From the IMG/VR virus record IMGVR_UViG_3300050343_000259: 64,000 bases of DNA; one strand, written 5' to 3'. Source of the DNA: an uncultured virus (IMG/VR IMGVR_UViG_3300050343_000259). Lineage: Duplodnaviria; Heunggongvirae; Uroviricota; Caudoviricetes. How positions within the stretch are numbered: position 1 is the stretch's first letter; every line of letters starts with the position of its first letter. Positions 19,759 to 43,775 of this stretch are shown here, piece by piece. The position numbers were made by a program, and so were the translations under genes. The notes beneath the pieces are model-generated. The model saw nothing but the letters and a program-made list of their open reading frames with translations, was not told where the DNA came from and ran no database searches.

Positions 19759-21120
19759 TTACTCTTTTTCGATTGGGAAATCGTGCTTTTTGAATAATTT
19801 TCTTGCACCTTGCTCGGTATCAAGTTGATGCTGAACAAACTCCGGTGATGGTATAAATAGGTTTGTTCTTTGGAATGTACTTCCTACCATATCGAACTGA
19901 GGCATTTCCTCTACCTTTTCTTTTGAGAAGCAATCATAATTAATCATCATTTGCTTGATGTATATTAACTTTGATTTAATTTGGTCTTGCCATTTAGGAT
20001 TTTTTCCTGCATTTGAAGTAGATACCGCAGATACAGAATTTCCTGATTGATTAGAAAACTCTGATTTTGATGGTTTACCATCTTTTATCCATCTTAATTT
20101 TTCACTTAAATGCTTACTTCTTTTCATTAAGAAATCACAACCATACTTATCATATCCTTTTTCTAAACTATCTACGAAATCAGGAGTTATATAATCCTTG
20201 TTTAGTTTTGGTTGTTTTACTTTGGCAATCAAAGGAGTTGCTATATCTATATATACATAGTCTAGTATTAACCTTACCGTTGTTAAAGGAAGTAAATTAT
20301 ATTTTATTTTCGTAAAACCATCGAGTATGTACCCTTTTCCTTTTGGTGTAATAATGTAATTTTGAGATTGATATGGGTCAATAGTCGGTGTAAGTACCTT
20401 TTGATATACTTTACCTGTAGCTAATGTTCTATCAAATAAAAACGGCTCTAATATTTGTTCTTGATTTTCAGAAAATATTTGAAAATTCTTTATGTCGTAT
20501 GTCCTCTGAATTGTACTATACAAAAAGTCGTTGTAAGGGAAATTAGAAGTAGATATTACAGAAATATTGGGATTTGAAGGCAAAGTAGGTGCTGCGGCTG
20601 ATGCTGAAGGATATACTTGTATTGGTAGCCAAATTGCTCCTCCGGTTTGACCATTTAATAATATAGATTCTACCCCATAATTATACTGAGCAGTTGTAGC
20701 AATATTTTGTGCAGCTATATATGCAGGGTCTACAATAACTCTAATTACAAAACTTGTGGATTCAAGACCATAAGGTCCATCTACTGTCCATTGTCCTATT
20801 ACGGCAAATGGGTTAGCTGCATCATTTAAATATGTAACTAATTCAGCAGTAGATATATTTGATAATTTTGGGTCGGCAAGAGAACCAACTATAAATGTAC
20901 TACCATCTGCTCTAAAAATTCTTATTGACACAGAACCATTAGAGGCTACAAGTTTAGGATTCCACCAATCACCAAGAGTATATATAGGTGACCAATTAGA
21001 TTCAAAGTTCCAAACAGTTTCCGTGCTTGTATTGGGTGCACCTAAAGCTGAAGTTTCAAAAACTGAAAATTCTTGAACTTCTGTAGAATTATTTCTAAAA
21101 CTAAATACCGATGCATCCAT
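19759..21120 (-). CDS. Paralog of the candidate capsid protein, with insertion domain (putative minor capsid/turret protein)
   Basis: KVLTPTIDPYQSQ...YILDGFT matches KTLVPTIDPYQNQ...YKWDGFT of 53404-54153. Confidence 0.6.
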   Translation of the reverse strand: MDASVFSFRNNSTEVQEFSVFETSALGAPNTSTETVWNFESNWSPIYTLGDWWNPKLVASNGSVSIRIFRADGSTFIVGSLADPKLSNISTAELVTYLNDAANPFAVIGQWTVDGPYGLESTSFVIRVIVDPAYIAAQNIATTAQYNYGVESILLNGQTGGAIWLPIQVYPSASAAAPTLPSNPNISVISTSNFPYNDFLYSTIQRTYDIKNFQIFSENQEQILEPFLFDRTLATGKVYQKVLTPTIDPYQSQNYIITPKGKGYILDGFTKIKYNLLPLTTVRLILDYVYIDIATPLIAKVKQPKLNKDYITPDFVDSLEKGYDKYGCDFLMKRSKHLSEKLRWIKDGKPSKSEFSNQSGNSVSAVSTSNAGKNPKWQDQIKSKLIYIKQMMINYDCFSKEKVEEMPQFDMVGSTFQRTNLFIPSPEFVQHQLDTEQGARKLFKKHDFPIEKE

Positions 21121-21797
21121 TATTTGCTATTTTTTAATATTGTGAACCAATCTTGGGTATTATCATTTAAATATCCATTATTGTCTATACTTACAATTCG
21201 TTTTGTAACTCCATTACTGACATTACCTCCTATTACCTCTATATTTTTTCTTTTTCTATTAACATCTACAACTATATCACAATGTGATTTATAACTACTT
21301 TTTGTATCATAGTTTACACCCGTTTGTCTAGGATAACATATCAAATCTCCTTTTTCAGGTTTAACTTCGTGTACCTTATATCCTTTAAAGTCCGAATTAT
21401 TGTTTTGTTTTCTATTCTGAATAAAAGGTCTTATATAATTAGTATGTGCCGATGAATAAGGGAATTCGTTTCCTGCCCCACTCTTTTTCATTATGAATGA
21501 AATAAAAGCAGATGACCAAGGAGTTTTTCTATCACAACCATCATAATTTTTACCTGTTCCTTTTTTCCAATACTCTCCTACTCTATCTTTATATATAGGA
21601 GTACATTCAAACTCTCCTGATTCTTCTAATTTTCCTCCTACTATTACAGGGCTGCCCCATAGTTTCCACTCTTTATTAGCATTTGAAATAATAGCAGATT
21701 TGAATCCACTTAAAAGATACTTTTTAAACAAAATATATAGACCTGCCGATACGACAAGACCTATTCCAACCCCTATTGCTACCTGCCCCTTTTTCAC
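21120..21797 (-). CDS. DUF2272-like (CHAP/NlpC-related) protein with N-terminal TM
   Basis: PWSSAFISFIM...SAHTNYI...PEKGDLICY...SHCDIVV...IGGNVSN. Confidence 0.8.
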   Translation of the reverse strand: MKKGQVAIGVGIGLVVSAGLYILFKKYLLSGFKSAIISNANKEWKLWGSPVIVGGKLEESGEFECTPIYKDRVGEYWKKGTGKNYDGCDRKTPWSSAFISFIMKKSGAGNEFPYSSAHTNYIRPFIQNRKQNNNSDFKGYKVHEVKPEKGDLICYPRQTGVNYDTKSSYKSHCDIVVDVNRKRKNIEVIGGNVSNGVTKRIVSIDNNGYLNDNTQDWFTILKNSK

Positions 21798-22195
21798 TTT
21801 TTAAATTTAGTATAGGCATAATATCCAATAGCAAAAAATGCAGCCCAATAATACCATTTAATAGCCTTATTTTGCATAACTCCATCATCAGCCCTCTCTT
21901 CTACATTTCCATTAAGAACTCCTCCTAAAGACTCTCCTGCCTTGTTGTATTCTAAATTTATAGTATTTGTGCCTGATGAAAAATCTTTAATAGATACAGT
22001 TTTGTTCTTATATCCAACATAAGAAATAGTAAGAAAGTCAGAAGGAAAGACATCAATGGTAAATAAACCTTTTTTATTTCCGCTTGTCTTTTTTTTATTA
22101 TCAATAATATTGCCCTCTCCATCAGTTACATAAACCGTTGCTTGTGGTAATATTTCTTGAGTTTTACTATCTACTACTAATCCGTTTGCTAACAT
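21794..22195 (-). CDS. Carboxypeptidase-regulatory-like domain (SusC N-terminal type) with C-terminal TM
   Basis: GLVVDSKTQEILPQATV...GLFTI...LTISYVGYK. Confidence 0.8.
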   Translation of the reverse strand: MLANGLVVDSKTQEILPQATVYVTDGEGNIIDNKKKTSGNKKGLFTIDVFPSDFLTISYVGYKNKTVSIKDFSSGTNTINLEYNKAGESLGGVLNGNVEERADDGVMQNKAIKWYYWAAFFAIGYYAYTKFKK

Positions 22196-22200
22196 TTTAT

Positions 22201-22332
22201 TTATTTTTCCTGTGTTTCATCTATCATTTTATTGGAAATTGTTCTATGAATTAGTAAAAACACTCCTAATAAGACAACTCCTATAATTATATCTCTTTCC
22301 GCTTTCTTTATTTCTTTTTTTATACTAGACAT
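22201..22332 (-). CDS. small membrane protein (43 aa)
   Basis: Read by hand: MSSIKKEIKKAERDIIIGVVLLGVFLLIHR... Confidence 0.6.
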   Translation of the reverse strand: MSSIKKEIKKAERDIIIGVVLLGVFLLIHRTISNKMIDETQEK

Positions 22333-22333
22333 T

Positions 22334-22498
22334 TTATTTTTTTGTTTTTTTGTTTTTCTCTGTTTTTTGGGCTTCTGCTACTTTAGATTTTATTGCTCCC
22401 GATAATCCTGTGTTTCCTTGAAATCCTTGATTTCCTATATTGCCTGAATTACCTGACCTTAAACCTAATCCTTTATTTGCTTTACCCGATAATCCCAT
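22334..22498 (-). CDS. small basic protein with short Gly-X-Y run (54 aa)
   Basis: MGLSGKANKGLGLRSGNSGNIGNQGFQGNTGLSGAIKSK...KKTKK; TAATG coupling to upstream gene. Confidence 0.6.
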   Translation of the reverse strand: MGLSGKANKGLGLRSGNSGNIGNQGFQGNTGLSGAIKSKVAEAQKTEKNKKTKK

Positions 22499-24804
22499 TA
22501 TTTTCTTCCTAAAAATATGCCAAGAAGAATACCTGCTAAACCTCCTATTAACATTGAATTATCACCTTTTTTAGTAGAACTTTTATCCATCTTCTCTGCA
22601 TATTTATTGTCTTTGTCTACTTTTGCTTGAGTTTTAGCTTTATTTTTTTCATAATCAGATAAATCTTCCCATTCTTTATCAGAATATCCCCAATATTTTT
22701 TGGTATCAGAAACACTTAATTGACCTTTTTTCTTAACTTCTCCACCTTTTGCATATTTATTATCTTTTCTTCTGTAAAAATAATCTTGTGTATCTTTTAT
22801 GCCATAAGTATCAACATTATCAAACACACCTTTCTTTTCAAGTCGTTTTTCTATCATACTTGCACCTCTAAAAGTGTCTGAACTACCAACTACCTCTCCA
22901 TCATAACCACTATCTTTGTGAACAATGTATCTTTTGACTTTACCACCTTTTGCAAATCTCCCCATTTTCAATTCTCTTCCTTCTTTATAGTTATCACCAT
23001 TAAACCATTTAGATATTTTATCAATACCTTTTTGTAGTTTTTCTTTTAAATCTTCTATACTATCAAAAGTGAATTTGTCTTGTGTGTAATCTTCGTAATT
23101 TCCTGTTCTGTGATAAGGTGCTTCCATATTTACATTACCGGTAAGAACTATAGTATGCTTACCATCAATACCTCTGCTATTATCAGGATTATAGTAAAAT
23201 GCTTCTACTTCAAACATAATACTATCATCATCACTTCTTGAAAACTCATCTAAATCTTCTGCCTCATCCATATATCCTGCATCCTGTAAAGAAGAGTAAT
23301 CAACATTTTCAATACCTCCTAATTCTTTTACTATGTCAGGATATTCTTCTTCAAATCTTTCTTTACCATATTCATAATTTAGATTTTCTACTCTTTCTAA
23401 TTCAGCATCTAAAGTATTTGTAGGCAATGATTTTCCTGAGCCTGTTAGATAGTTTCCGTATGTGAAAAAACGGTATTCATAGCCTCCATCAGTAAAAGGT
23501 ATAAAGCCATCTCGACTCTTATATTCTACCTCTTCTCCTTTTATTTCTTGACCTTCATATTCTTGATTAGCATCTTCTAAAACATCTTCTAACTCATCTT
23601 TTAATACCTCAACTATTTTTTCTCTACTTATAGTTTCTCCACCCTCGGCAAACCCTTGAGGGAATTTAGAACTATATATTTCATCGTTATATCGAGATGC
23701 ATTATCAACTACTCTTACCCAAGTATTAGAATCTTCTATTTCTCTTGCTTTTGATATTGCTCTTTTTTTATTTGGTGCCTCATCATCTAAATACACTACA
23801 TCGTAGTTTTCATCAAAATCATAATCATCTTCGTTGTTGTAAACTCTAATAATATATTCTTTGTTTTCATCTAAATCTCCACCTTTTTCAAAACTTCTAA
23901 TCACGAAAATATCTCCATCATTAGACTTGTATTTCATTTTAGGAAAATACTTTTGTTTAGCTTCTTCAAAATTATCTCTATTCTGTCTTTCTGAATCAAC
24001 AAAAATCACTTTATAATTATCTCCTGCTAATACTTTTATTTCTTCTACATCATAATCATAATCTCCTCCGGACTGCCAATCATCTCCGAACTTTTGCTTT
24101 GCTAAATCAATTAAACCGTTTTCACTAACAAAATCATCTGTTGATGTGTAATTTCCACTTAAATCCTTTCCTAAACTGCCACCTTTTGCATATTTAGATA
24201 AATCGTATTCTTTTACTGTTCCTCCCTTTTTATAGTTTTGAAAATAATGTCCATCATATTCGTTATAATTGTTTATTGATAAATCTCTTCCCAAAGCCTC
24301 ATAGTCAAAATAATATTCAGGATTTGAAACACCTTCAATACCTCCTACATTATCAACATAATTTTCTCCTAATTCGTAATCCCCATCATATTGTCCTATA
24401 TATCTATCATCTACAAATTCCTCTAAATTATCAGGGCTAAAATCATTTGCTATGGATTGTAATACTTCAGCAGGAATTCCTTTTTCTTCTGATATTTTAT
24501 GAGTATCAATAATAATATCATAATCTGCCTCTCCCATATACTCACTATATAGGCTGCTATCAAAATTTTCGTAGTCGTGAATTGAGTGCTCAGTTTCTTC
24601 TCCGTTATGATACTTCTTGCTATATTCTTTCATAAGAGAAGCAATTTTATCGCTAACTTCTTCTCCACTATCATAATCAGTTAAATCAACCCACTCACCA
24701 ACTAACCTACCTTCATTATAAGATTTTAAGTCTGCAACATAAATTTTTGGAGTATCATCTTTAAATTCTCCTCCTTTATTATATTTATATTTTTTCATTT
24801 CCAT
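22498..24804 (-). CDS. Modular polyprotein: ArdA anti-restriction domain plus further modules separated by 7 [FY]xxGG linkers; C-terminal TM
   Basis: KIYVADLKSYNEGRLVGEWVDL...IHDYE...YFDYEALGRDL matches ArdA; ends MLIGGLAGILLGIFLGRK. Confidence 0.85.
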   Translation of the reverse strand: MEMKKYKYNKGGEFKDDTPKIYVADLKSYNEGRLVGEWVDLTDYDSGEEVSDKIASLMKEYSKKYHNGEETEHSIHDYENFDSSLYSEYMGEADYDIIIDTHKISEEKGIPAEVLQSIANDFSPDNLEEFVDDRYIGQYDGDYELGENYVDNVGGIEGVSNPEYYFDYEALGRDLSINNYNEYDGHYFQNYKKGGTVKEYDLSKYAKGGSLGKDLSGNYTSTDDFVSENGLIDLAKQKFGDDWQSGGDYDYDVEEIKVLAGDNYKVIFVDSERQNRDNFEEAKQKYFPKMKYKSNDGDIFVIRSFEKGGDLDENKEYIIRVYNNEDDYDFDENYDVVYLDDEAPNKKRAISKAREIEDSNTWVRVVDNASRYNDEIYSSKFPQGFAEGGETISREKIVEVLKDELEDVLEDANQEYEGQEIKGEEVEYKSRDGFIPFTDGGYEYRFFTYGNYLTGSGKSLPTNTLDAELERVENLNYEYGKERFEEEYPDIVKELGGIENVDYSSLQDAGYMDEAEDLDEFSRSDDDSIMFEVEAFYYNPDNSRGIDGKHTIVLTGNVNMEAPYHRTGNYEDYTQDKFTFDSIEDLKEKLQKGIDKISKWFNGDNYKEGRELKMGRFAKGGKVKRYIVHKDSGYDGEVVGSSDTFRGASMIEKRLEKKGVFDNVDTYGIKDTQDYFYRRKDNKYAKGGEVKKKGQLSVSDTKKYWGYSDKEWEDLSDYEKNKAKTQAKVDKDNKYAEKMDKSSTKKGDNSMLIGGLAGILLGIFLGRK

Positions 24805-24808
24805 ATTT

Positions 24809-25486
24809 TTATTTTATCAATAGTGCAGGTATAAGAATTCCTGTCCCTACACCTAGACCATACCAAAATCCTTTTTTATCATAGAATCTAGTATCATTTC
24901 TGATAACTATATTTTTCAAACTACTAACATTTACATAAGGATTTTCGTTTTTCACCAAGACTGAAGGTGTGGGAGCCTTGAAAAAACCGTTACTTTTCAT
25001 TCCCAAAGTAATAGTTTGCCGATTATACAAAGATAAAGAATCTATCCACATACCCTTTGTATTTATAGTTGAATATATAGAGTACCATTCATCTTCCACA
25101 CCGAACTTAGTAGGAAGTTTTAAAAAAGGTAATCCTGTAGCATCAAATGTAACTCTTTCAATAGTGTCTATAATGGGGACATATATACTATCTATCTTTG
25201 TAATAGTTCTAACTGTTACTTGAGATTTGACCTTTTTTAAATCCTCTATAACAAGCAAATTTAGAGCAATGGCATCCTTTTGTGAAAGGATTACCTGCTC
25301 TTGTTCTGCTATTTTTTCTCCGTTTTCATTTAATTTCTCAACAAAAACTTGTTCTCCATCTTTAAATTTAATGACCTGACTTTTATAATCTCTTAATCTT
25401 TCATTAGCACTAAAAAGTTGCCAAATAAGAATAAATAGAATTATAATACATATAGTTAGTGCATTATTTTTAAGTTTAGAAAACAT
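24809..25486 (-). CDS. N-terminal TM + coiled-coil protein, possible spanin-like lysis protein
   Basis: N-terminal TM, coiled coil, C-terminal GLGVGTG; next to a holin-like gene. Confidence 0.5.
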   Translation of the reverse strand: MFSKLKNNALTICIIILFILIWQLFSANERLRDYKSQVIKFKDGEQVFVEKLNENGEKIAEQEQVILSQKDAIALNLLVIEDLKKVKSQVTVRTITKIDSIYVPIIDTIERVTFDATGLPFLKLPTKFGVEDEWYSIYSTINTKGMWIDSLSLYNRQTITLGMKSNGFFKAPTPSVLVKNENPYVNVSSLKNIVIRNDTRFYDKKGFWYGLGVGTGILIPALLIK

Positions 25487-25494
25487 AATCCATT

Positions 25495-25689
25495 TTATTT
25501 CTTGTTTCCTATATTTGACAAGTGTTCTCCGGCATTACCTACTGCATAAATACCAAATATCCACATTACAAACTCAGACCAATTAGCAAAGTCTGCCTGT
25601 CCAATAAACAAGAAAACTGTTGCACATATAAACAATAAAATCGCAAAAAACATTTTACGACCACCTAAAAAACTAAATACTTTTTCCAT
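25495..25689 (-). CDS. small two-TM protein, holin-like
   Basis: FLGGRKMFFAILL..., two TMs, YAVGNAGEH. Confidence 0.6.
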   Translation of the reverse strand: MEKVFSFLGGRKMFFAILLFICATVFLFIGQADFANWSEFVMWIFGIYAVGNAGEHLSNIGNKK

Positions 25690-25701
25690 TTTTTCTTTTT
25701 T

Positions 25702-26373
25702 TTAATTCATAATTCTAACATCATATATATTCTGATTGGCGGCTATTATTCTTCTATTAACCTCATCCCAATTTATAATTTTAAATATATTTTTGATGTA
25801 TTTCGTTCTGTCTGCATCGTATTTCAAATAATATGCGTGTTCCCACACATCTACTCCTAATAAAGGATATGATTGATACTCAGGCATATATGGATTGTCT
25901 TGATAAGGGGTAGCTAGTATATTTGTACTGCCATCTCTATTCATTACCCACCATACCCATCCTGAGCCGAATCTTTTCTGCGATGCTTCAATAATAAATT
26001 CTTTAAATTGTCCGTAAGTACCAAAGTCTTGAATAATTTTAGCCAATGAAACACCGTGTGGTGGATTTGACTTTTTTGATGGATTAGGTTTAAGCATTTT
26101 CCAAAACATAGAATGATTTACATACCCTCCTCCATTATCTCTAATTTCAATTGGGTATCTATCTATGTTCTGCATTACTCTAATAACCGGGTCAGTAATA
26201 TCATATTTGTCTACTGCTGCGTTAAACTTTTTTAAATACCCTAAATAATGTTTATTGTAGTGTATTTGCATAGTTTCCTCATCAATATATGGCTCTAAAC
26301 CGTTATATTTATAAGGAAGCCTTACAGGAGAAAAATGTATTAAATCATAGTCATCATATTTATTCATTTTCAA
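25702..26373 (-). CDS. sodA: Fe/Mn superoxide dismutase (Mn-type signature)
   Basis: LPYKYNGLEPYI...HYNKH...NGGGYVNHSMFW...FGSGWVW...QDNP...DVWEHAYY; start may be the second Met (26367). Confidence 0.93.
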   Translation of the reverse strand: MKMNKYDDYDLIHFSPVRLPYKYNGLEPYIDEETMQIHYNKHYLGYLKKFNAAVDKYDITDPVIRVMQNIDRYPIEIRDNGGGYVNHSMFWKMLKPNPSKKSNPPHGVSLAKIIQDFGTYGQFKEFIIEASQKRFGSGWVWWVMNRDGSTNILATPYQDNPYMPEYQSYPLLGVDVWEHAYYLKYDADRTKYIKNIFKIINWDEVNRRIIAANQNIYDVRIMN

Positions 26374-26488
26374 ACTTTTTATTGCGTGTTAAGTTGCGTG
26401 TGGTAACATACGAACCTCTGAACAAAGCAAAAGAACCAATTACACACACGACTAACAAAGCACTTAGAACAACTTTATTATTCACTTA

Positions 26489-26587
26489 TTACTTACACTT
26501 ATAGATTAAGTAACCTAACATTCCAATGATAATTACATTGTGAACATTGTTACCACCTAAAAAATCTGCACTTTTAATATCAAACAT
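26489..26587 (-). CDS. micro membrane protein (32 aa)
   Basis: MFDIKSADFLGGNNVHNVIIIGMLGYLIYKCK. Confidence 0.5.
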   Translation of the reverse strand: MFDIKSADFLGGNNVHNVIIIGMLGYLIYKCK

Positions 26588-26796
26588 TTTTTTTAAATTT
26601 TTGGGTTAATACTCGTTTTATTTACTCTCCTGCAAGTTATATTTTTTAATGAGATTTTTAGCGATAGTTTGTAACTTCTTTTTATCGGCTCTTGCAGGTG
26701 GGAGATTGTCGTTAGTAATATTAAGTTTAGACTCTTGCATACTTGCAATTGTATATTTTAAATTCTTAACGATTTCTCTTGCCCTATTTACACTCA

Positions 26797-27288
26797 CTAC
26801 TTCTTCAATAATAAATAGGCACCTACACCTATTGCTATATATAAAATTAAATCATTATTATCTTTTTTACCTTCAACCGGCTCCGGATTTACTACAACTA
26901 CAGGAGTAGGTGTTACAGGAACTTCTGTAATAGGCTCAGTAACTACATTTTCTACAACGGCAGGACTGTATGGTAAAATAGGGTCAGTTAAAATAGGGTC
27001 AATAACAAAAGGTTCATCTTCTTTGGTTACTACCACAGGTGGACCTTTTACAATTGGTGTATTGCAAGGGTCTTTATCTAATGTCCATCCTTGAGGGCAA
27101 ACTGTTCCGGGGAACATATTAGAAACCCCATATCCTTTATCACACTTATTACATATTACAGTCTGAGTAACAGGGTCTACAGGTCTAGTTGGTACACTTG
27201 GCACCGAAACAGGTGGTCGATTAGTTGGTAATACAACCCTACTTCGACCTTGAGTAGCTGCTGCTTCAAACCATAATTCATTTGACAT
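26797..27288 (-). CDS. Pro/Val-rich tail-anchored protein with small Cys domain
   Basis: ICNKC...CPQGW...PC; C-terminal TM + KK. Confidence 0.75.
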   Translation of the reverse strand: MSNELWFEAAATQGRSRVVLPTNRPPVSVPSVPTRPVDPVTQTVICNKCDKGYGVSNMFPGTVCPQGWTLDKDPCNTPIVKGPPVVVTKEDEPFVIDPILTDPILPYSPAVVENVVTEPITEVPVTPTPVVVVNPEPVEGKKDNNDLILYIAIGVGAYLLLKK

Positions 27289-27481
27289 ATCTTTTTATTT
27301 TTTATTATTTAATCTAATCCTACTAATTCATCAATAGTTTTGCCATCGAAATATTTATCTTTTAAGAAATTATCATAAAAACCAACCAAGGCTACAATAG
27401 CTAATAAGTTAAAAGCTACTTGATATTCAAAAGGGGCTAAACCACCTTTTTTTAATTTATTGTATGACCTTTTATTCATTT

Positions 27482-27697
27482 TTAATCTTCATTTATATTC
27501 CAATCTTGCTGAGGCTTTACGGCAATTATTTTAGGTGAATTTTCTTCTTTTAATTCTTTTTTTACTAATTTTATTCTTAAAACATCTAAATATGTTTTTA
27601 CAATATAAGAAACTCCTATAGCAATTGCAATAGAACCTCCTACTGTTAGTATTTTTTGAAGATGACCTTCTTCTAAATAATCTTCCCACTTAGCCAT
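27482..27697 (-). CDS. small membrane protein
   Basis: Single TM. Confidence 0.7.
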   Translation of the reverse strand: MAKWEDYLEEGHLQKILTVGGSIAIAIGVSYIVKTYLDVLRIKLVKKELKEENSPKIIAVKPQQDWNINED

Positions 27698-27818
27698 TTA
27701 CAATGTGTTTTTAGTTATTGTAATATTTTTTGCTATATATTCTTGGTAAATCATATAAGCACCGTACCCTGCAAGGGCATATTTTATTATTGAAAACATA
27801 GTATATTATTTTTATTTG

Positions 27819-28271
27819 TTATGCTCCACAAGAACCACAAGCATTACTCATATTTGAAGTTTGCCAATCAGTACCTTGTAGGTTTCCTGATGCATTACTC
27901 ATATTAGTAGTTTGCCAATTTGTTCCTTGTAAATTTCCATTTGCACCATAGAATCCGGTTCTTCTTCTTCCCGGAATAGCTGCTAACCAATTGTTATCTG
28001 CACTAGGCAATGCTTTTCTATCTCTTGGTGGACCGTAAGGAATCATATATCCTCTTCTTGCTCCTGAAGCATTCTGAAACACACCACCTTCTTGCCACAT
28101 AGTTTCTCTGTTTCTACCTGACTGTTGCCAATTTGTTCCTGTAAAACTTGAAGTTGGTTCAGCACCTTCAATTGGTGGAACTGTACTTGTTTTTGGTTTA
28201 GAGAAATGCTCGTAAGCTGCATATGCTCCAAATCCTGCTAGTCCGTAAAGACCAATTTTCATTAAATCCAT
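27819..28271 (-). CDS. N-terminal TM protein with GTNWQ/NASG repeats
   Basis: Internal repeats GNLQGT[ND]WQT[TS]NMSNA; block shared with 50390-50779. Confidence 0.8.
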   Translation of the reverse strand: MDLMKIGLYGLAGFGAYAAYEHFSKPKTSTVPPIEGAEPTSSFTGTNWQQSGRNRETMWQEGGVFQNASGARRGYMIPYGPPRDRKALPSADNNWLAAIPGRRRTGFYGANGNLQGTNWQTTNMSNASGNLQGTDWQTSNMSNACGSCGA

Positions 28272-28290
28272 TTTTTCTTTTTTTTATTGA

Positions 28291-28704
28291 TTAATAATTA
28301 TTTAATTTTTGTTTGATAGGTATTTCTAAAACTTCGTTACCTTTAAATGTATATTCATTTTCAGGGTACATCATTTGCGAGTTACCTAAGTTGTCTATTC
28401 CCCAAACAGGAAAATCCACATCTTTCATTGTGATTCTTCCATTTGGAATGAGATTATAAGGTCTGTTTAAATCCTTACTATCTCTTTTATAACCTGTAAC
28501 AGAATATATGTCACCATTAAATCCTAATGATGCGGCTCCTCCAATTGGTAAGCCTCCTATTACTCCACTACTAGGTACAGTCACAACATATGGTTGTGAT
28601 TGTCTATTAGAATCAAAAAAGTCATCACCTTCGTTAAACCACGAGTTATTCGTGTCTAACAAATTAGATACATCAGCATAGCCATCTTTAATAATACTAT
28701 CCAT
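28291..28704 (-). CDS. phage hypothetical protein (ITMK...FPV domain)
   Basis: GYKRDSKD...NLIPNGRITMKDVDFPVWGID...MYPENEYTFKG..VLEIP, a module I recall from large phage proteins. Confidence 0.7.
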   Translation of the reverse strand: MDSIIKDGYADVSNLLDTNNSWFNEGDDFFDSNRQSQPYVVTVPSSGVIGGLPIGGAASLGFNGDIYSVTGYKRDSKDLNRPYNLIPNGRITMKDVDFPVWGIDNLGNSQMMYPENEYTFKGNEVLEIPIKQKLNNY

Positions 28705-28870
28705 TTAATCCTTTTTTGTCTAATTCTTCTTTTACTATTTTCTTTACTCCCGGTCTAAAAACATATATTTCTGCCCACATTTCAAGAGCAACAAAGGCAG
28801 CTACTGCTACTGTAACCGTACCCCAATTTATTTTATCACCGAATAACTTCATATTACCTTTTATATATTA

Positions 28871-29239
28871 TTAAAACAAAAATCTTGAGCCTGTAGGAAT
28901 ATCATATACAAAATCTTCACCTTCACAATAAAATGCTCCTTTTTTGCCATTTTTATCTAGCCAAAATTTTGATACAGTACAAGGTGTTTTACCATTAATA
29001 AGTCCTTTTGTTCCAATATGTAATCTTTCAGTTGCTTCATATTTATCATCACGAATTAAATCAATTGCATTATTATTTTTTGCATCACTAATGTTGATTG
29101 AATTATTAAATGTTGAAGCTAAATTATCCTGCCCTAAAGTTGTTTCAGTTAATTCATTTTTATCTTTTTTAATAAATAAAAAGTAAGCTGCTACTGCCGC
29201 TACTGATACACCTATAATAATTTTTGTTTTCTTATCCAT
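28871..29239 (-). CDS. N-terminal TM protein
   Basis: MDKKTKIIIGVSVAAVAAYFLF. Confidence 0.75.
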   Translation of the reverse strand: MDKKTKIIIGVSVAAVAAYFLFIKKDKNELTETTLGQDNLASTFNNSINISDAKNNNAIDLIRDDKYEATERLHIGTKGLINGKTPCTVSKFWLDKNGKKGAFYCEGEDFVYDIPTGSRFLF

Positions 29240-29252
29240 TTTATTATTTTAA

Positions 29253-29396
29253 TTACTTCTTTTTATATATCATCATACCTGTCTTTGTTTTTGATGCCAC
29301 ATAGGTACTTCCGTTATAACTAAATGATTTTTTTCCGGCTTTTCTTGCCTTTTCTTTTGCTTTCATATAAGCATTCATTGCTCTTTTCTTTGCCAT
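29253..29396 (-). CDS. small basic protein (47 aa), putative DNA-binding
   Basis: MAKKRAMNAYMKAKEKARKAGKKSFSYNGSTYVASKTKTGMMIYKKK. Confidence 0.7.
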   Translation of the reverse strand: MAKKRAMNAYMKAKEKARKAGKKSFSYNGSTYVASKTKTGMMIYKKK

Positions 29397-29398
29397 AA

Positions 29399-29563
29399 TT
29401 ATTTATTTTTAAATTTATTTTTATATATGTAAAATGCTAAACCTGCCACAAGAATTGCACCTCCTATATACATTAGATTCTTATTTCTTTTTTCCGTTTT
29501 TACTTCTTGAGTACGAGCATCAATAACTGCCTGTTCTTCAATAGTATGTTGTTTAGCCGCCAT
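29399..29563 (-). CDS. small tail-anchored protein (54 aa)
   Basis: MAAKQHTIEE...NLMYIGGAILVAGLAFYIYKNKFKNK. Confidence 0.7.
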   Translation of the reverse strand: MAAKQHTIEEQAVIDARTQEVKTEKRNKNLMYIGGAILVAGLAFYIYKNKFKNK

Positions 29564-29566
29564 AAT

Positions 29567-29833
29567 TTATTTTTTAAAAATTCCCTTACTGTAGGCATAA
29601 TATACACCTACTCCAATAATTGCTATCCAAGCTAAGTTTGGTAAGCCCATAAAACCTGCTTTTTTTGGCTTTACCTCTGCCGGTTTAGTTCCCACATTAT
29701 CTCCGGGTCCTATTACTTCTGCTTCAGCTAATAATTCTTCTTTTACTTCGGCATCATCTTTTCCTGCTCCGTATAAAGCATCATTTACCTTTTTTATATA
29801 TTCCGGGTCTGTTCCTTCTGCGAATCTTGACAT
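29567..29833 (-). CDS. tail-anchored protein, paralog of 29954-30217
   Basis: KKAGFMGLPNLAWIAIIGVGVYYAYSKGIFKK. Confidence 0.8.
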   Translation of the reverse strand: MSRFAEGTDPEYIKKVNDALYGAGKDDAEVKEELLAEAEVIGPGDNVGTKPAEVKPKKAGFMGLPNLAWIAIIGVGVYYAYSKGIFKK

Positions 29834-29839
29834 AATTTT

Positions 29840-29947
29840 TTATTTTTTTCGGGTATGACTTTTTACTGTCTTACCTTTTCGTTTATAACTCTTGATTATT
29901 GTGCAAGATTTACTTCCACTTTTTTTTACTGCTTTTTTCTTTGCCAT
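29840..29947 (-). CDS. small basic protein (35 aa)
   Basis: MAKKKAVKKSGSKSCTIIKSYKRKGKTVKSHTRKK. Confidence 0.65.
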   Translation of the reverse strand: MAKKKAVKKSGSKSCTIIKSYKRKGKTVKSHTRKK

Positions 29948-29953
29948 AATTTA

Positions 29954-30217
29954 TTATTTTTTAAACACTCCTTTTGTGTAAGCATAATATACACCTGCAC
30001 CAATAATTGCAACCCAAGCTAAAGTTGGCAATCCCATAAATCCTGCTTTTTTTGTTTTACCATCTACAACTTCTGTGGTAGTAGATTCTGCTGCTACTTC
30101 AGTTGTAGGTTCAGGTGTTGCAATTTTAACATTATCACTAGGTGCTTCTTTAAATTGTTCTGCCAATATTTCTTTTCTTTCTGCTACGAATTTTGGGTCT
30201 ATTTTTTTTGATGCCAT
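29954..30217 (-). CDS. tail-anchored protein, paralog of 29567-29833
   Basis: KKAGFMGLPTLAWVAIIGAGVYYAYTKGVFKK. Confidence 0.8.
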   Translation of the reverse strand: MASKKIDPKFVAERKEILAEQFKEAPSDNVKIATPEPTTEVAAESTTTEVVDGKTKKAGFMGLPTLAWVAIIGAGVYYAYTKGVFKK

Positions 30218-31859: not shown

Positions 31860-32081
31860 TTATTTTTTTAATTTACTATATATTATTATTGCTACTATCG
31901 CAAGAGATATTCCTCCTACTAATTTTAAAACTGCACTTCCAATACTATTATCTTCTTCTTTAAATTCATCTATGCTTCCAACTGCATTAGAGTAATTTTC
32001 TTGTTTACATTTACCTCCGCACTTACATTCACCTCCATTTTGGCAAGGGTGATACTCTTTATTTTTGCATCCACAACTCAT
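31860..32081 (-). CDS. small Cys-rich (metallothionein-like) tail-anchored protein
   Basis: MSCGC...CQNGGECKCGGKC, YSNAVG, TM. Confidence 0.7.
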   Translation of the reverse strand: MSCGCKNKEYHPCQNGGECKCGGKCKQENYSNAVGSIDEFKEEDNSIGSAVLKLVGGISLAIVAIIIYSKLKK

Positions 32082-34348
32082 TACTTTCTTCCTAAAAATA
32101 TACCAAGAAGAATACCTGCAATTCCTCCTATCAGCATTGTGTTATGCTCTTCATTTCCTTTTTTCTTTACCTCTCCACCTTTTGCATAACCTCTTTCAGC
32201 TTTTATTTCTTCAATAGCATCTTGATATGTTTCATCCGTAGGAGTTCCATCTTCATTATATCCATCAAGTTCAGGATGTTTTTCAAGCCATTCTATTATT
32301 TCTTGATGTGATATTTCTCCACCTTTTGCAAAATCTTCTTTATCAAGTTCTAATGCCTCTAATAATTCTTCTTTAGTGTTTATGGGTGTCGGTGTATTCA
32401 TAGAATTTCCTAACCATATTTCATAAAGTTCTTCTCTTGATGGGTTGTTTTCAAGAACTTCCTCTATGTGCGAAACATCAATACCATCATTATTCATATC
32501 ATCTATATACATACGAACTATCTCCTCACTATTTACATTATCCCAATCTCCCTCGCCCTTATCTTGTAAATAATCATAAAATTCTCCAAAAGACATATCC
32601 TTAATAGAGCCACCTTTAGCAAAGTCCAATTTAGGTGTCCACTCTACTACTTTATATTGAATAGAACTACTCATTCTTTGCAGTTTATTTTTTTCGTCTT
32701 GAGCATCTTTGTATGATAGATATTTTTTGCCACCCGTTAAAAACTTCTCATCTTTCCATTTTGGAACTCCTAAATCATATTTACTTTTTTCTTGAATTTT
32801 GTAAATCTTTCCTTGTGTTTTACCACCTTTAGCAAATCTGTTTTTTTCTTCTACATATTTTAAACCTTGATTAGATAATTTATATTCTCCTTTATTTATT
32901 AATCTTGCCCAATTTTCAGCTTCTTTTTTTGTTTTATAAGAAGGGTTTGAGTATGTACTTCCATATTTTTTTAAGTAGTATTTTCCGTTAGTTCCATAAA
33001 CAGATACTTCCCCACCTTTTGCAAAAGTTTCTAAATTTTTAACCATTGCTTCAACTCTTCTTCCATTTGTTGCTTCAACTATTGCCACACCCCCATCATC
33101 TCCATCTGCTCTTAATTTTATTATTTCTTCTACTTTACCACTTTGTCCTTTTCCCATACCACTTATTGAATGTGGGAAATTGTCTTTTGTTGCTCTAACC
33201 ACATCTCCTACTTCAATTTTACCACCTTTAGCATAAGATTGAACACCATCTTCATCTACTTCCCAAAGATAACCTTGTTGACTCATAATTTGAGATTTAT
33301 ATGCACCATCTTCAATACTTGAAAGTGCAATTTCTAATGCCTCACTATATGTTTTTACTTCTTTATCTAAACTTGGCTTATTGCTATTGTATCTTGCTTT
33401 ACTTTTCCAAACCTCAACTGAAAAAGGACTATCTTTTTTAGGCTCTACTTCGCCACCTTTTGCGAACTCTAATTTCTCTTTTTTATAGACTTCATATGGA
33501 AATAAAAATTGAGCAGAATACAACTTCATTTCACCTTTTTTCCAAAGTTCTATTTCTTTTTCAGTAGGTGCAGAAAACTCATCCCAATCACTACCTTTTT
33601 CGTGCTTTACAAGAGCACTTGTTTGAATAGTATCTTCATCAACATAAAAATCCTCTTCTTTCATATCTGCGTATGAAACAAAATCATTTAAAGTTTCAAA
33701 TAAATCTTTTTTATTAGTAAACTTAGTTTTATATGGAAAATCATTTTCACCTAAGTAATATGAATGAAATTGGTCTTGCTCTCCCTCTTCATAAGAATCT
33801 TCGTAAAAAGTAACATCAGCACCCTTTATTTGGTATGTTTTTCCAACTTCCCCACCTTTTGCATAATCTTCGTGTTCTATTCCAAAATTATCATAATCCT
33901 CAATATCGTTTTTACTATCTATTAAGCCCTCTGATTCTTCGCTAATGTTTATTCCATAAATCTCTATTTTATCCCAATTTTTCTCTGCAAACGACTTGCT
34001 TACTTCTTGAAATTTATATCCATCAGAGAATGTTATAAAACCGCCTTTAGCAAATTTTGCTTTTTGTTTCTTAGCATCTTGAACGGTTTTGTATATGCCT
34101 CCTAAATCTTTCTTGATGTCTTTAATTTTGTTCTCTCTGTCCTTAATAGATTTCTTTTCTCTATCAATGCCACTTTCTAAATTATTAATTTGATTTTCGG
34201 AACTTGTAATATCTTTACGAATGCTTTTTATCTCATCTCTACCTTCATTGATTTCTTTATCGCCTTTTTTAGCGACATTACCCATAGCTTTAGCAAGTTC
34301 AATTTGACCTCCTCTTTCGTAACTATTATTTCTATTTCCTCTTTTCAT
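32081..34348 (-). CDS. Modular polyprotein with 10 [FY]xxGG linkers and C-terminal TM
   Basis: YERGG plus nine F/YAKGG; ends MLIGGIAGILLGIFLGRK. Confidence 0.85.
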   Translation of the reverse strand: MKRGNRNNSYERGGQIELAKAMGNVAKKGDKEINEGRDEIKSIRKDITSSENQINNLESGIDREKKSIKDRENKIKDIKKDLGGIYKTVQDAKKQKAKFAKGGFITFSDGYKFQEVSKSFAEKNWDKIEIYGINISEESEGLIDSKNDIEDYDNFGIEHEDYAKGGEVGKTYQIKGADVTFYEDSYEEGEQDQFHSYYLGENDFPYKTKFTNKKDLFETLNDFVSYADMKEEDFYVDEDTIQTSALVKHEKGSDWDEFSAPTEKEIELWKKGEMKLYSAQFLFPYEVYKKEKLEFAKGGEVEPKKDSPFSVEVWKSKARYNSNKPSLDKEVKTYSEALEIALSSIEDGAYKSQIMSQQGYLWEVDEDGVQSYAKGGKIEVGDVVRATKDNFPHSISGMGKGQSGKVEEIIKLRADGDDGGVAIVEATNGRRVEAMVKNLETFAKGGEVSVYGTNGKYYLKKYGSTYSNPSYKTKKEAENWARLINKGEYKLSNQGLKYVEEKNRFAKGGKTQGKIYKIQEKSKYDLGVPKWKDEKFLTGGKKYLSYKDAQDEKNKLQRMSSSIQYKVVEWTPKLDFAKGGSIKDMSFGEFYDYLQDKGEGDWDNVNSEEIVRMYIDDMNNDGIDVSHIEEVLENNPSREELYEIWLGNSMNTPTPINTKEELLEALELDKEDFAKGGEISHQEIIEWLEKHPELDGYNEDGTPTDETYQDAIEEIKAERGYAKGGEVKKKGNEEHNTMLIGGIAGILLGIFLGRK

Positions 34349-34350
34349 AA

Positions 34351-35388
34351 TTATCTTCCTATAAAAAATGCACCAAGTAAAATACCTGCTATCCCTCCTA
34401 CAAGTAAAGTTTGATTATTATTATCTTCAGTATTATCAACTTTTTTTGCTTCTACTTTTTCAATTTTATCATCACATTTATCTTTAGTGATAGTTGCTTT
34501 TCTTAAAGCACCTTTTTCCTTCTTTAGTTTAGCAATTTCTTTGTCTTTTTCTCTTCTTAGCTTAACATATCTATCTCTGTCAATTTTACCTTCAACAGAG
34601 CCTCCACGAGCCATTTTTATTTTCTCTATGCTTCTAACTCCATTTGCAAGTTGCTCTCCTTTGTTAAAATCTTCAATAGATTTATAATTAGTTTCAAAAC
34701 CTTCATTATGCTCATTAATAAATTCCATAGCTTCTGATTTTGTTAGATATTCAGTAGCATCTTCATCATCAGATTCACGATATACATATCCACCTTTAGC
34801 CATTTTTCTTTTGCCTTTATCCATTGTAGATACATCAGCATACTTTCTTCTACCCATAGATTTTTCCATTCCTGCACTTTCTCTCATTCTACTGTCTAAA
34901 GATTGAGATTTTTTTCCTCTGTTTCTTTCTCCTATGCTTTCTCTATCTCTGTCATCATAACCCTGAGTTTTTCCACCTTCCATAAACATTCTATCGCCTT
35001 TGTCCATAGTGTCTACACTTGAATATGCTCTACGACCTAGATTTTTATTAGCTGCTTTGCTTTCATCTCTTCGGTCTTTTAATGTTTGTGTATAATTGCT
35101 TTCTCTTCCAAGTCTAGTTCCTAAATCTTCATTTAACTTGTCGTTATACCCTTGTGGTTTATCGGTTTCTCCTCCTTTAGCCATCTTTTTCTTATTTGCT
35201 ATTTGTTGCATATTTAAAGCAAATTGTGCTCTTTCACGAGTTCTTTCTGAAAAGTCAGTTGGATTATCTTTTACTTTTTTAGCAAAATCTTGAACGGACA
35301 TACCTGCATCAGTAGCTTGTTTAGTAAACGCACCAACAGTTCCTTTTTTTTCCATTTCTTTATCTACATTTTGAATCCAATCTGCCAT
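34351..35388 (-). CDS. Modular polyprotein with 4 [MF]xxGG linkers, internal duplication and C-terminal TM
   Basis: MAKGG x2, FMEGG, MARGG; duplicated QGY[ND]D...ES...GRR.Y..V.TMDKG; ends LLVGGIAGILLGAFFIGR. Confidence 0.85.
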   Translation of the reverse strand: MADWIQNVDKEMEKKGTVGAFTKQATDAGMSVQDFAKKVKDNPTDFSERTRERAQFALNMQQIANKKKMAKGGETDKPQGYNDKLNEDLGTRLGRESNYTQTLKDRRDESKAANKNLGRRAYSSVDTMDKGDRMFMEGGKTQGYDDRDRESIGERNRGKKSQSLDSRMRESAGMEKSMGRRKYADVSTMDKGKRKMAKGGYVYRESDDEDATEYLTKSEAMEFINEHNEGFETNYKSIEDFNKGEQLANGVRSIEKIKMARGGSVEGKIDRDRYVKLRREKDKEIAKLKKEKGALRKATITKDKCDDKIEKVEAKKVDNTEDNNNQTLLVGGIAGILLGAFFIGR

Positions 35389-37036: not shown

Positions 37037-37486
37037 TTAATCATTAAACCACATTTGGTCATTATATCCTCCAAAACCTTGTTGATTAAAATTAGAGTAT
37101 GATTCTCCATCAAATCCTATACTATTTCTTCCTCTAACGGAGCCACAACTTGCAGGGCTATTACTATAATTACCCAAAGAACCACAGTTACCTTGAGATG
37201 TTAGTGTTGTAAAGTTTGAACCCGGCATTGGCATTCCCACACCTTGACATCCTTGTGGATAGCAAAATCCTGTGTAGGTACAACTTCCATCATCTGTATT
37301 TGCTCCCGGACTATAATTGTTTGCACTAGAATCAGTACAACCGCTAATAGTATATTCACACGGACAATCAACCGTTGGTGGTGGTGGTGGTGGTGGTACA
37401 TTTATATTTGCTGCTGCATTAAAGAATTCATCTCTTGAAATGTAAGAGTTAAATCCATCTTGGTCGTTATTTAGTAAAAAAGCCAT
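37037..37486 (-). CDS. Cys-rich protein with GCTD...DDGSC repeat; paralog of 43801-44259
   Basis: GCTDSSANNYSPGANTDDGSC; ends GFGGYNDQMWFND. Confidence 0.8.
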   Translation of the reverse strand: MAFLLNNDQDGFNSYISRDEFFNAAANINVPPPPPPPTVDCPCEYTISGCTDSSANNYSPGANTDDGSCTYTGFCYPQGCQGVGMPMPGSNFTTLTSQGNCGSLGNYSNSPASCGSVRGRNSIGFDGESYSNFNQQGFGGYNDQMWFND

Positions 37487-37504: not shown

Positions 37505-38170
37505 TTAATAATCCCCCATCATAAAGGTTCCATCAAATCCTCTTGAATATGGTACACCTGTATTTACATTAGTTACTACATTTCCTGAATTAGGAGAAGT
37601 AGAACATCCGACTGTTGCATTAGGATTATAGTTATCTGCCAATGGGTCAGTACATCCTACTATTTGAACAGGAGGATATTGACAACTTCCATCATCTGCA
37701 ACTGCTAAAGAATCATAGTTTAATGCTGAAGGGTCCATACATCCTGCTATTGGCATTGGTGGTGGATTTAATTGACAAGTTCCATCATCACTATTTGCAT
37801 TAGGATTGAAATTAACTGCCTGTGGGTTGGTACACCCAAATACTGTGTAAGTACAACTTCCATCATCTGTATTTGCTCCCGGTGCAAAATTATTTGCATT
37901 AGAATCAGTACAACCTAAAATTTTTTGTGGAGGTGGCGGTAAAATAGTTATTGGGTCATCCGTATCTAGTGGAGGAAAGGTTGGTTGTGGTGTTACAATT
38001 AATGGCTCCTCTACATATATTGGCATTGAAGGCGGAACAACAATTGGCTCTGTTGGTGGCAATGTTGGTTCGGTATTGCTTACTATAGCAACCGTTTCAT
38101 CCTTTTTCTTGTTAAGAAGTAAGTAGGCAGCCACACCGATGCCTAATAATCCCAATAATTTGTTGTCCAT
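37505..38170 (-). CDS. N-terminal TM, Pro-rich stalk, four GC[TM][DN]..A.N[YF] repeats
   Basis: Repeats visible in translation; ends RGFDGTFMMGDY. Confidence 0.85.
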   Translation of the reverse strand: MDNKLLGLLGIGVAAYLLLNKKKDETVAIVSNTEPTLPPTEPIVVPPSMPIYVEEPLIVTPQPTFPPLDTDDPITILPPPPQKILGCTDSNANNFAPGANTDDGSCTYTVFGCTNPQAVNFNPNANSDDGTCQLNPPPMPIAGCMDPSALNYDSLAVADDGSCQYPPVQIVGCTDPLADNYNPNATVGCSTSPNSGNVVTNVNTGVPYSRGFDGTFMMGDY

Positions 38171-43008: not shown

Positions 43009-43009
43009 A

Positions 43010-43511: not shown

Positions 43512-43775
43512 TTATTTTTTAAAATATTTTTGATAAGCTAGTAAACCAATTACACCGGCAGCTACACCAATCCAATAATTTTTTTCACTAAAAATATTTG
43601 TGTATGAATCAGCATCTCCACTCATTCTTCTATATCCTCTTCTGCTTCCTCCTGCTGAAGAACCTGATTTACCTGTGCATTGATAACCACTACATCCTCC
43701 ACATCCTTTTGGACATCCTACATTTGCATCACAGTAATAAGCACTACACGGTTTTTTACTTGCATTAATTGCCAT
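43512..43775 (-). CDS. small Cys-rich tail-anchored protein
   Basis: MAIN start, six Cys, TM. Confidence 0.75.
   Translation of the reverse strand: MAINASKKPCSAYYCDANVGCPKGCGGCSGYQCTGKSGSSAGGSRRGYRRMSGDADSYTNIFSEKNYWIGVAAGVIGLLAYQKYFKK

Follow-up and report, generated by a model that had tools for sequence, protein, structure and literature searches.

Introduction

Polyvalent proteins were described in 2017 by Iyer, Burroughs, Anand, de Souza and Aravind, who list ArdA among their domains, mainly in conjugative elements of Firmicutes, tie the ArdA-bearing members to the ArdC-N domain, and propose that a zincin named 'MPTase', frequent but not universal in the same polypeptide, cuts such proteins into units (PMC5512222). 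Their main text makes no mention of the junction motif described below, and the words 'linker' and 'glycine' are absent from it (PMC5512222). Here we analyse a stretch of 64,000 nucleotides from an uncultured virus (IMG/VR record IMGVR_UViG_3300050343_000259; Duplodnaviria, Heunggongvirae, Uroviricota, Caudoviricetes), called the window hereafter, and in it a minus-strand gene (22498-24804) that encodes a multi-module protein of 768 amino acids (aa) with ArdA as its first cassette. This protein and its relatives share with polyvalent proteins the presence of many unrelated counter-defence or effector domains on one polypeptide, among them ArdA, RelA/SpoT, ADP-ribosyltransferase (ART) and zeta-type kinase domains. 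They differ in that they belong to a marine virus, that no MPTase, MuF or ArdC-N domain was found in cis in the 768-aa protein and 30 scanned family members, that a uniform seven-residue motif separates the domains, and that some of them carry a transmembrane tail. The system is a cassette-based form of polyvalent protein from a lineage of marine viruses that is as yet essentially undescribed. Our reading, to which we give a probability of roughly 50%, is that this gene of an uncultured, AT-rich marine virus lineage codes for a modular polyprotein for counter-defence, and that its cassettes are joined by a processing junction.

In phage T4, the leader of the internal proteins is a capsid-targeting sequence that is cut at Leu/Ile-x-Glu. 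IPI-IPIII are small anti-restriction precursors whose N-terminal leader is cut inside the head and which are injected with the DNA (PMC12373910). If the processing reading holds, the protein described here would likewise be an anti-restriction precursor with a short leader that is delivered with the DNA, whereas the T4 proteins are encoded by separate small genes, lack a membrane tail and act against type IV rather than type I enzymes. Polyproteins that are cut at Gly-Gly-X are matured by Ulp1/adenain-type cysteine proteases in African swine fever virus (ASFV) and in adenovirus. Among large DNA viruses of eukaryotes, ASFV pp220/pp62 and the adenovirus core precursors are examples of such processing (PMC10308890). 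These are structural or core polyproteins under an inner membrane that yield mature products by Gly-Gly-X cleavage, and the likeness is an analogy only: the motif register is different, and no Ulp1/adenain domain was found in the library scans of the window.

Results

A complete ArdA protein as first cassette

Residues 21-187 of the 768-aa protein match the Pfam family PF07275 over profile positions 1-153 of 155 (E 4.4e-23; 83.1 bits versus a cut-off of 27), and the same cassette matches phrog_2059, 'anti-restriction protein', with an E value of 2.1e-25. A match to the ArdA protein ORF18 of Tn916 (2w82_A; E 1.4e-7) covers residues 18-178 and chain residues 3-150 of 165, and in the C-terminal YxDYxAxGRDL block YFDYEALGRDL of the cassette is aligned to YIDYQAYGRDL of 2w82. 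An earlier reading of the DNA made without database searches (the sequence-only reading) had placed an ArdA domain between YNKGG and YKKGG at 24236-24768, citing the hallmarks IYVADLKSYNEGRLVGEWVDL, IHDYE and YFDYEALGRDL, and had proposed the Pfam profile as a check. The span corresponds exactly to residues 13-190, all three hallmarks are present in the translation, and the profile match bears the assignment out. With the closing YKKGG, the cassette comprises 183 residues (13-195; 24220-24768, minus strand; Pfam envelope 24244-24744), with an isoelectric point (pI) of 4.12, a net charge of -31 and 25% Asp plus Glu, an acidity of the kind that a DNA mimic would be expected to have.

When the 768-aa protein was compared with GenBank phages by tblastn, 99 records matched, all of them only over query residues 15-194, and none covered 80% of the query. 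Among the 30 matches listed, one carries the annotation 'hypothetical', and the other 29 are labelled ArdA-like or anti-restriction. In the database, ArdA proteins that stand alone end at ...DGY[IL]Fxx[YH], and this position aligns with the Tyr of YKKGG, so that the cassette corresponds to one whole ArdA protein. Judged by these alignments, the first cassette is a bona fide and complete ArdA, sharing with the described family the full-length profile match, the YxDYxAxGRDL block, the acidic composition and the natural termini; the difference is that here ArdA has no gene of its own but follows a 12-aa leader as one cassette of a membrane-tailed protein. The earlier statement that ArdA is normally a standalone gene calls for a correction, as fused ArdA has a precedent among the polyvalent proteins (PMC5512222).

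A seven-residue motif conserved on the peptide level

The ArdA cassette lies between YNKGG (residues 8-12; 24769-24783) and YKKGG (residues 191-195; 24220-24234), and altogether seven such junction motifs delimit seven modules in the polyprotein. For the analysis of the motif we used the best 120 of the 199 homologues with E <= 1e-3 found among 8000 candidates. In these 120 proteins the pattern [YFW]x[KE]GG occurs 546 times, versus 17.9 +/- 4.0 times in 50 shuffles. A logo was made from 853 unique sites, in a search that fixed P5 as Tyr, Phe or Met and both P2 and P1 as Gly. At the free positions, Ala occupies P4 in 68% and Lys occupies P3 in 59% of these sites, and V, I, T, L or M is found at P2' in 90%; there is almost no information outside P6 to P3'. 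The junction unit is the seven-residue [YFM]-A-K-G-G-x-[VITL], for which no published description was found in the open-access literature. In the window, 21 [YFM]x[KER]GG sites are confined to three genes (7, 10 and 4 sites); with P3 restricted to Lys or Glu, 19 of 20 [YFM]x[KE]GG sites are located in the three polyprotein genes and the remaining one at 43289-43303. The loose motif also matches FT[DN]GG inside module 5, so some GG pairs are not junctions.

Such a repeat could in principle be a signal in the nucleic acid, with AAAGGAGG acting as an internal Shine-Dalgarno sequence in front of nested starts or as a DNA word for recombination. Lys-Gly-Gly can be encoded as AAAGGAGG, GGAGG is found in 5 of the 21 window sites, and V, I, L and M are frequent at the second position after GG. 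However, the other 16 sites lack GGAGG, GGTGGN being used in 15 of the 21, and the Gly-Gly pair is encoded by eight codon pairs, with the codons for P5 and P4 varying too; moreover, a Shine-Dalgarno function would leave the conserved aromatic residue and the Ala unexplained, and nested starts would give no discrete modules. Since the Gly codons vary, selection appears to act on the peptide and not on a Shine-Dalgarno-like or recombination word. We consider a nucleic-acid signal the least probable of all explanations, and on account of the codon variety it was rejected.

The motif is also kept where there is little to connect. In the 768-aa polyprotein it directly follows the 12-residue leader, and in a homologue of 220 aa that consists essentially of leader, ArdA and a 13-residue tail (P0258) it flanks ArdA on both sides. 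Among short ArdA homologues, all 17 with at least 47% identity carry the motif, while among 19 distant ones (<= 37%) just three have any [YFM]xxGG. From this distribution, the junction is best described as a short linear motif that is conserved for its own sake even where no domains need linking. In a structural model of module 5 made with AlphaFold2 (AF2), the last 15 residues (218-232), which contain the motif, have a predicted local distance difference test score (pLDDT) below 50, which is consistent with an exposed linker.

Cassettes are exchanged at the junctions

In 24 of the 27 ArdA-bearing homologues, a motif ends 0-2 residues ahead of the projected ArdA start; in the remaining three, ArdA itself forms the N-terminus of the protein, for which gene calling may be partly responsible. 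At the other side, the end of a motif coincides exactly with the projected ArdA end in 22 of the 27. This bracketing holds whether ArdA is the first module, internal (start at 288-754) or near the C-terminus (992-1056). Over the whole family, 40% of 26,991 BLAST alignment ends are no more than 5 residues away from a motif, versus 12% for random points. When 122 proteins were cut at their motifs, 990 pieces of at least 40 aa (median 80 aa) were obtained, 499 of them acidic and 358 basic, which form 327 clusters whose members sit at widely differing relative positions. These comparisons show that relatives have exchanged cassettes, ArdA and the membrane tail among them, exactly at the junctions. 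The sequence-only reading had taken the ArdA boundaries as evidence that GG motifs delimit units; this view is well supported by the alignments, as the same is seen family-wide for ArdA and for module 5.

A Pfam scan of 30 family polyproteins identified ArdA in six, RelA_SpoT in six (one match, at 26.2 bits, just below the cut-off), DUF5824 in one and no family in 18. The second polyprotein of a relative in IMG/VR (G001, loci L017-L020), which is 1173 aa long (L017:11355-14876) and has three junction motifs, contains DUF5824, Zeta_toxin (E 1e-22), AAA_33 and ART-PolyVal (PF18760; 35.1 bits versus a cut-off of 31.2). Because relatives string RelA/SpoT, zeta toxin and ART-PolyVal on the same motif, we regard the family as a marine-virus variant of polyvalent proteins, and the results point to a cassette system for counter-defence proteins.

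What the junction does is a separate question. We see about even odds that it is a proteolytic processing site which would free ArdA and the other products. Alternatively, the polypeptide might stay uncleaved as a tethered multi-domain protein, with ArdA and the other modules working as a chain on the membrane. The junction would then be a conserved hinge, or it would dock to, for instance, a chaperone, a packaging partner or the inside of the capsid. The motif is repeated 7-15 times per protein, as expected for multivalent docking; the candidate protease considered below is not specific to motif-bearing genomes; and, among polyvalent proteins, N4 vRNAP, ArdC and TraC1 are given as examples that are transferred unprocessed (PMC5512222). 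A hinge, however, has no need of five to seven specified residues, and would serve no purpose behind a leader of 12 aa, in front of a tail of 25 aa or on both sides of a lone ArdA domain, while the one-to-one correspondence of motifs and cassette borders suits a separator better than a docking signal. We find an uncleaved protein unlikely.

Modules of the ArdA polyprotein, paralogues and membrane tail

The gene at 22498-24804 (minus strand) is thus a modular polyvalent-type polyprotein gene whose 199 homologues have mosaic architectures, and ArdA is the sole family that Pfam recognises in its product. The 12-residue N-terminal leader MEMKKYKYNKGG (24769-24804) ends in the first junction motif, and a leader of 10-12 aa followed by a motif is also present in close homologues. 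Behind ArdA, a 14-residue peptide, TVKEYDLSKYAKGG (residues 196-209; 24178-24219), ends in the third motif and forms a conserved tail of the ArdA cassette; the peptide x[IV][KR]K[YF]DLxxY that follows YK[KR]GG of ArdA is also found at the extreme C-terminus of three homologues (P0252, P0255 and P0253). Module 3 (residues 210-309; 23878-24177; pI 4.5) has no Pfam family and lies between YAKGG and FEKGG, and module 4 (residues 310-389; 23638-23877; pI 4.2) between FEKGG and FAEGG. They are followed by module 5 (residues 390-621; 22942-23637; 232 aa, pI 4.3), which is the most widespread cassette of the family, by the basic module 6 (residues 622-688; 22741-22941; pI 9.4) and by the tail module (residues 689-768 plus the stop codon; 22498-22740), all on the minus strand. 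The protein is therefore mixed in charge, with a pI of 4.1 for ArdA, 4.2-4.5 for modules 3-5 and 9.4 for the last two modules. The sequence-only reading had suggested that the other acidic modules may be new DNA mimics, a suggestion drawn from their charge; about half of all modules in the family are acidic, and the best conserved of the acidic ones, module 5, yielded no informative fold (see below).

No signal peptide is visible at the N-terminus, MEMKKYKYNKGGEF, of the 768-aa polyprotein. Near its C-terminus, residues 751-766 form a predicted GxxxGxxxGxxxG transmembrane helix (22507-22554), SMLIGGLAGILLGIFLG-RK, in line with the earlier description of ArdA as one module of a C-terminally membrane-tailed multi-module protein. 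Two further polyproteins on the minus strand end in the same transmembrane tail. One of 755 aa (32081-34348) has ten junction motifs and no Pfam family, and one of 345 aa (34351-35388) has four motifs and consists mostly of basic repeat modules. In all three the near-identical tail reads ...(M/L)L(I/V)GG(L/I)AGILLG(I/A)F(L/F)(G/I)(R/G)(K/R), with Gly at every fourth position of the helix. Such a spacing is known as a glycine zipper and favours helix-helix association. Among 122 family members the tail is present in 23, and in 21 of these it is a module of 25-30 aa placed directly after a motif. The 345-aa polyprotein contains two tandem basic repeat modules ending in ...(R/K)xY(S/A)xVxTMDKGxR(M/K)(F/M)(M/A)(E/K)GG, and a similar sequence constitutes the C-terminal end of the polyproteins of loci L001 and L003. 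These basic repeats may be nucleic-acid-binding modules.

The tripartite order of the tail, with GG, a hydrophobic helix of about 13 residues and basic residues, would also fit a sorting signal of the GlyGly-CTERM type (GG, helix, RK) that is cut by a rhombosortase-like enzyme of the host, the internal GG sites being related to it. NCBIfam, which includes models of such sorting domains, gave no family for the 768-aa protein at E <= 0.01, although a search with so long a protein may overlook short models, and no N-terminal signal peptide for export is visible. To our knowledge, a rhombosortase is not expected in Bacteroidota, the suggested hosts. A signal of this type is very improbable.

Module 5, the most widespread cassette

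Module 5 was found in 105 of the 120 homologues, with an exact closing motif in 104 of the 105 and a start no more than 6 residues from a motif in 93. It was through an alignment of this module that a search of IMG/VR found related loci, single-protein searches with the 768-aa query, P0002 and P0014 having found none. In unrelated IMG/VR phage contigs (L006-L013; GC 0.21-0.64), including one of 363 kb, module 5 is free-standing (200-318 aa), and it also occurs inside a protein of 2237 residues without junction motifs. This family, widespread in phages, is not covered by Pfam or PHROG. The structure predicted with AF2 is of poor quality (pLDDT 64.9), and Foldseek found nothing for it at E <= 0.001 in PDB (best 0.17) or BFVD (best 0.057). 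The top match in VIA-align was a Mediator fragment (Z 9.3; root-mean-square deviation (rmsd) 4.5; 109 aligned). Capping proteins and chaperone-like alpha/beta sandwiches came next, and the arrangement is a generic one. Module 5 was also considered as a protease and rejected, as its free-standing relatives do not conserve His176 and Ser41.

A zincin as weak candidate for the processing protease

The minus-strand gene at 50791-51621 encodes a protein with a beta-sandwich and an HExxH zincin metallopeptidase domain. It is a core gene of the lineage, with 1661 homologues and 53 loci in IMG/VR, and a weak candidate for the processing protease. Residues H193, E194, H197 and E207-x-E209-A210-D211 are invariant in 24 sequences, and the HExxH is followed by DExEAD. 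The AF2 model (pLDDT 88.7, predicted template modelling score 0.88) consists of an N-terminal beta-sandwich and a C-terminal domain. The best structural match of residues 124-261 is the M48 peptidase BepA (6sar_A; rmsd 4.8; 121 aligned), with a Z score of 8.6 that is barely above the level the tool calls common, and the next ones are the putative Zn peptidase 3c37 (Z 6.6) and Ste24p (Z 6.1). No match was obtained in Pfam or NCBIfam, nor with a profile against PDB sequences at E <= 10 or with the model in Foldseek against PDB at E <= 0.001, and an Atlas lead to DUF4344 reached a score of just 0.87. By motif and predicted fold, the protein is an M48-like zincin metallopeptidase outside the curated sequence families. 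It shares with the M48 zincins BepA, HtpX and Ste24 the HExxH motif, the downstream acidic block and the fold as matched in BepA, but has no transmembrane segments, bears an extra N-terminal beta-sandwich and shows no match on the sequence level.

The zincin gene is present in the three IMG/VR records with motif polyproteins and in neither of two records with module 5 but without the motif. In 10 long zincin-bearing records, the strict coding pattern [YF]AKGG was found 6, 1, 2, 0, 10, 4, 3, 8, 0 and 10 times, on one strand per record, and the reversed-pattern control gave 0. For a complex of the zincin with polyprotein residues 180-225, the prediction gave a score of 0.00, which was obtained without controls and speaks neither for nor against binding. 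It is doubtful that this stand-alone zincin does the cutting, and it may be a general maturation enzyme.

Virus lineage and gene neighbourhood

Beyond a plus-strand collagen-like gene, the window has about 30% GC and nearly all genes are on one strand. This collagen-like open reading frame (ORF), which is open at the start of the window (2-4405, plus strand; at least 1467 aa), consists almost entirely of collagen triple-helix repeats (PF01391, E 1e-211), has a GC content of about 0.50 and an AT skew of about 0.43, and belongs to a GC-rich block that extends to about 6000. The recognised genes of the window, namely RecT, a PD-(D/E)XK nuclease, RusA, HNH, methyltransferases, glycosyltransferases, PAP2, Fe/Mn superoxide dismutase, Amidase_3, DUF2272/CHAP and PG-binding proteins, fit a virus of bacteria, and a SusC-type CarboxypepD_reg domain in a neighbouring gene hints at a Bacteroidota host. 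The superoxide dismutase gene (25702-26373; Sod_Fe_N E 5e-21, Sod_Fe_C E 1e-32) lies between membrane-protein genes and the ArdA polyprotein gene.

The relative G001 has 68,799 bp, is rated complete and carries perfect inverted terminal repeats of 127 bp; at least two further zincin-bearing records (G007 and G012) are also classed with inverted terminal repeats. No cultured relative was found: a megablast search of window positions 20000-30000 and tblastn searches with the zincin and a 272-aa ATPase gave no match among GenBank phages. This P-loop ATPase (56438-57256) is 56.5% identical to its counterpart in G001 and has only weak HerA or terminase-like matches (DUF87, E 9e-4; phrog_2666, E 1.8e-4). 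Near it, a protein of 249 aa (53404-54153) is 39.6% identical to its G001 counterpart, its size being conserved at 230-249 aa, and it is a paralogue of the protein at 19759-21120, with which it has a 'PTIDPYQ.Q' block in common. Both are candidates for putative capsid or vertex proteins; the protein at 53404-54153 had no Atlas match (best score 0.78) and no PDB match.

The minus strand encodes a highly unusual proteome: a strict scan of its 95 ORFs between 7195 and 64000 found a transmembrane helix in 27, in 17 of them at the extreme C-terminus. These 17 C-terminal helices are followed by KK or RK, and further tail-anchored ORFs can be seen by eye, e.g., at 21794-22195, 26797-27288, 29567-29833 and 43512-43775. 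Scans of 68-69 proteins of the window and 58 proteins of G001 revealed no capsid, portal, tail, terminase or DNA polymerase family, and NCBIfam added no capsid or protease genes for 60 window proteins. A membrane-containing, non-tailed particle is an attractive guess; membrane-containing viruses of the PRD1 type have a jelly-roll major capsid protein and an FtsK/HerA-type packaging ATPase. The label 'structural region', which the sequence-only reading gave to the surroundings of the ArdA gene, cannot be verified, because neither the window nor G001 has a recognisable capsid, portal, tail or terminase family.

The neighbourhood also bears on where the polyprotein would act. ArdA and Ocr-type mimics are classically expressed early from incoming DNA. 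The polyprotein could accordingly be an early intracellular counter-defence precursor with its tail in the inner membrane of the host, where it would protect replicating or incoming DNA, cleaved or uncleaved, without being virion cargo; this is compatible with cleavage. Without a signal peptide the bulk of the polyprotein would stay cytoplasmic, no neighbouring gene could be identified as coding for a virion protein in the library scans, and in G001 the genes for polyproteins adjoin AAA ATPases, upstream of the block that codes for membrane proteins. In the window, however, about 27 small genes for membrane proteins surround the three polyprotein genes, which are on the same strand as a lysin-like DUF2272 gene, the conserved ATPase and the candidate capsid genes, and the ART-PolyVal and zeta-toxin cassettes found in relatives are read as delivered effectors by Iyer et al. 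(PMC5512222). We think this intracellular role rather unlikely. The sequence-only reading had proposed that ready-made ArdA is delivered together with the genome. Loading of the precursor or its products into the virion via the membrane tail, and action at DNA entry, is somewhat better placed when judged by analogy, and we propose it tentatively.

A set of Cys-rich proteins (37037-37486, 37505-38170, 41578-43065, 43801-44259 and 49210-49533) has common C-terminal endings, ...GFDG(E/T)FM(F/M)GDY or ...YSNFNQ(Q/K)GFGGYNDQMWFND, and repeats units of the form 'GCTD..A.NY.P.AN.DDGSC'. Several other ORFs of the window begin with ...LWFNQSG.

Discussion

In the mechanism that we propose, the membrane tail would load the tethered precursor into the virion, so that the cassettes would be present when the DNA enters, and the precursor would be cut at its junctions into free proteins. 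One product would be an ArdA of about 21 kDa. ArdA proteins act as dimers that inhibit type I restriction-modification enzymes, and the freed cassette would do the same as a mimic of DNA. The cut might be made just ahead of the conserved hydrophobic residue (GG-x↓hydrophobic, the arrow marking the cut), which is speculation. Zincins usually select the residue after the cut, and the conserved V/I/T/L at GG+2 would for this reason fit such a position.

Several observations weigh against this scheme. Cleavage is a deduction from the protein sequences, and no peptidase family was detected in the query or the 30 scanned polyproteins (E <= 0.001). Regarding the candidate protease, a looser pattern gave 3 hits versus 2 in the control in G009, a record of 100 kb that is rated complete, and 1 versus 1 in G014; in two of the 10 zincin records the motif is thus no commoner than background, so that the zincin is not tied to it, and as the motif-positive records are all relatives, its co-occurrence with the motif is confounded by kinship. 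With no signal peptide and an anchor at the tail, the N-terminal modules would stay on the cytoplasmic face of the membrane. In a virion of the PRD1 type, the cytoplasmic face lies outside the DNA-containing vesicle, which makes delivery together with the DNA awkward. The tail is found in just 23 of the 122 members, and membrane tethering is therefore optional. Finally, the 120 homologues were seeded by the 768-aa query, so the module frequencies are biased towards the modules of the query itself.

A fuller version of the proposed scheme can be formulated, which taken as a whole we consider improbable. It would describe an abundant, uncultured marine lineage with linear genomes of about 60-100 kb, inverted terminal repeats, dozens of tail-anchored membrane proteins and none of the genes by which tailed phages are recognised. 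Its polyprotein arsenal, with ArdA, an alarmone synthetase, an ADP-ribosyltransferase, a zeta kinase and hundreds of other cassettes, would be built on a universal seven-residue cleavage site, tethered to an internal virion membrane by the glycine-zipper tail and cut by a zincin of the virion, and the finished products would enter with the DNA.

If the junction is a cleavage site, each stretch between two motifs would be a self-contained, naturally delimited viral protein. The 990 units in 327 clusters, obtained from 122 proteins, would then constitute a boundary-annotated catalogue of candidate anti-defence proteins, in which ArdA, RelA/SpoT and ART serve as internal positive controls. If true, this would provide a defined sequence motif for studying the processing of polyvalent proteins, and would bring a large group of marine viruses, beyond the reach of current annotation tools, into the concept of polyvalent proteins.

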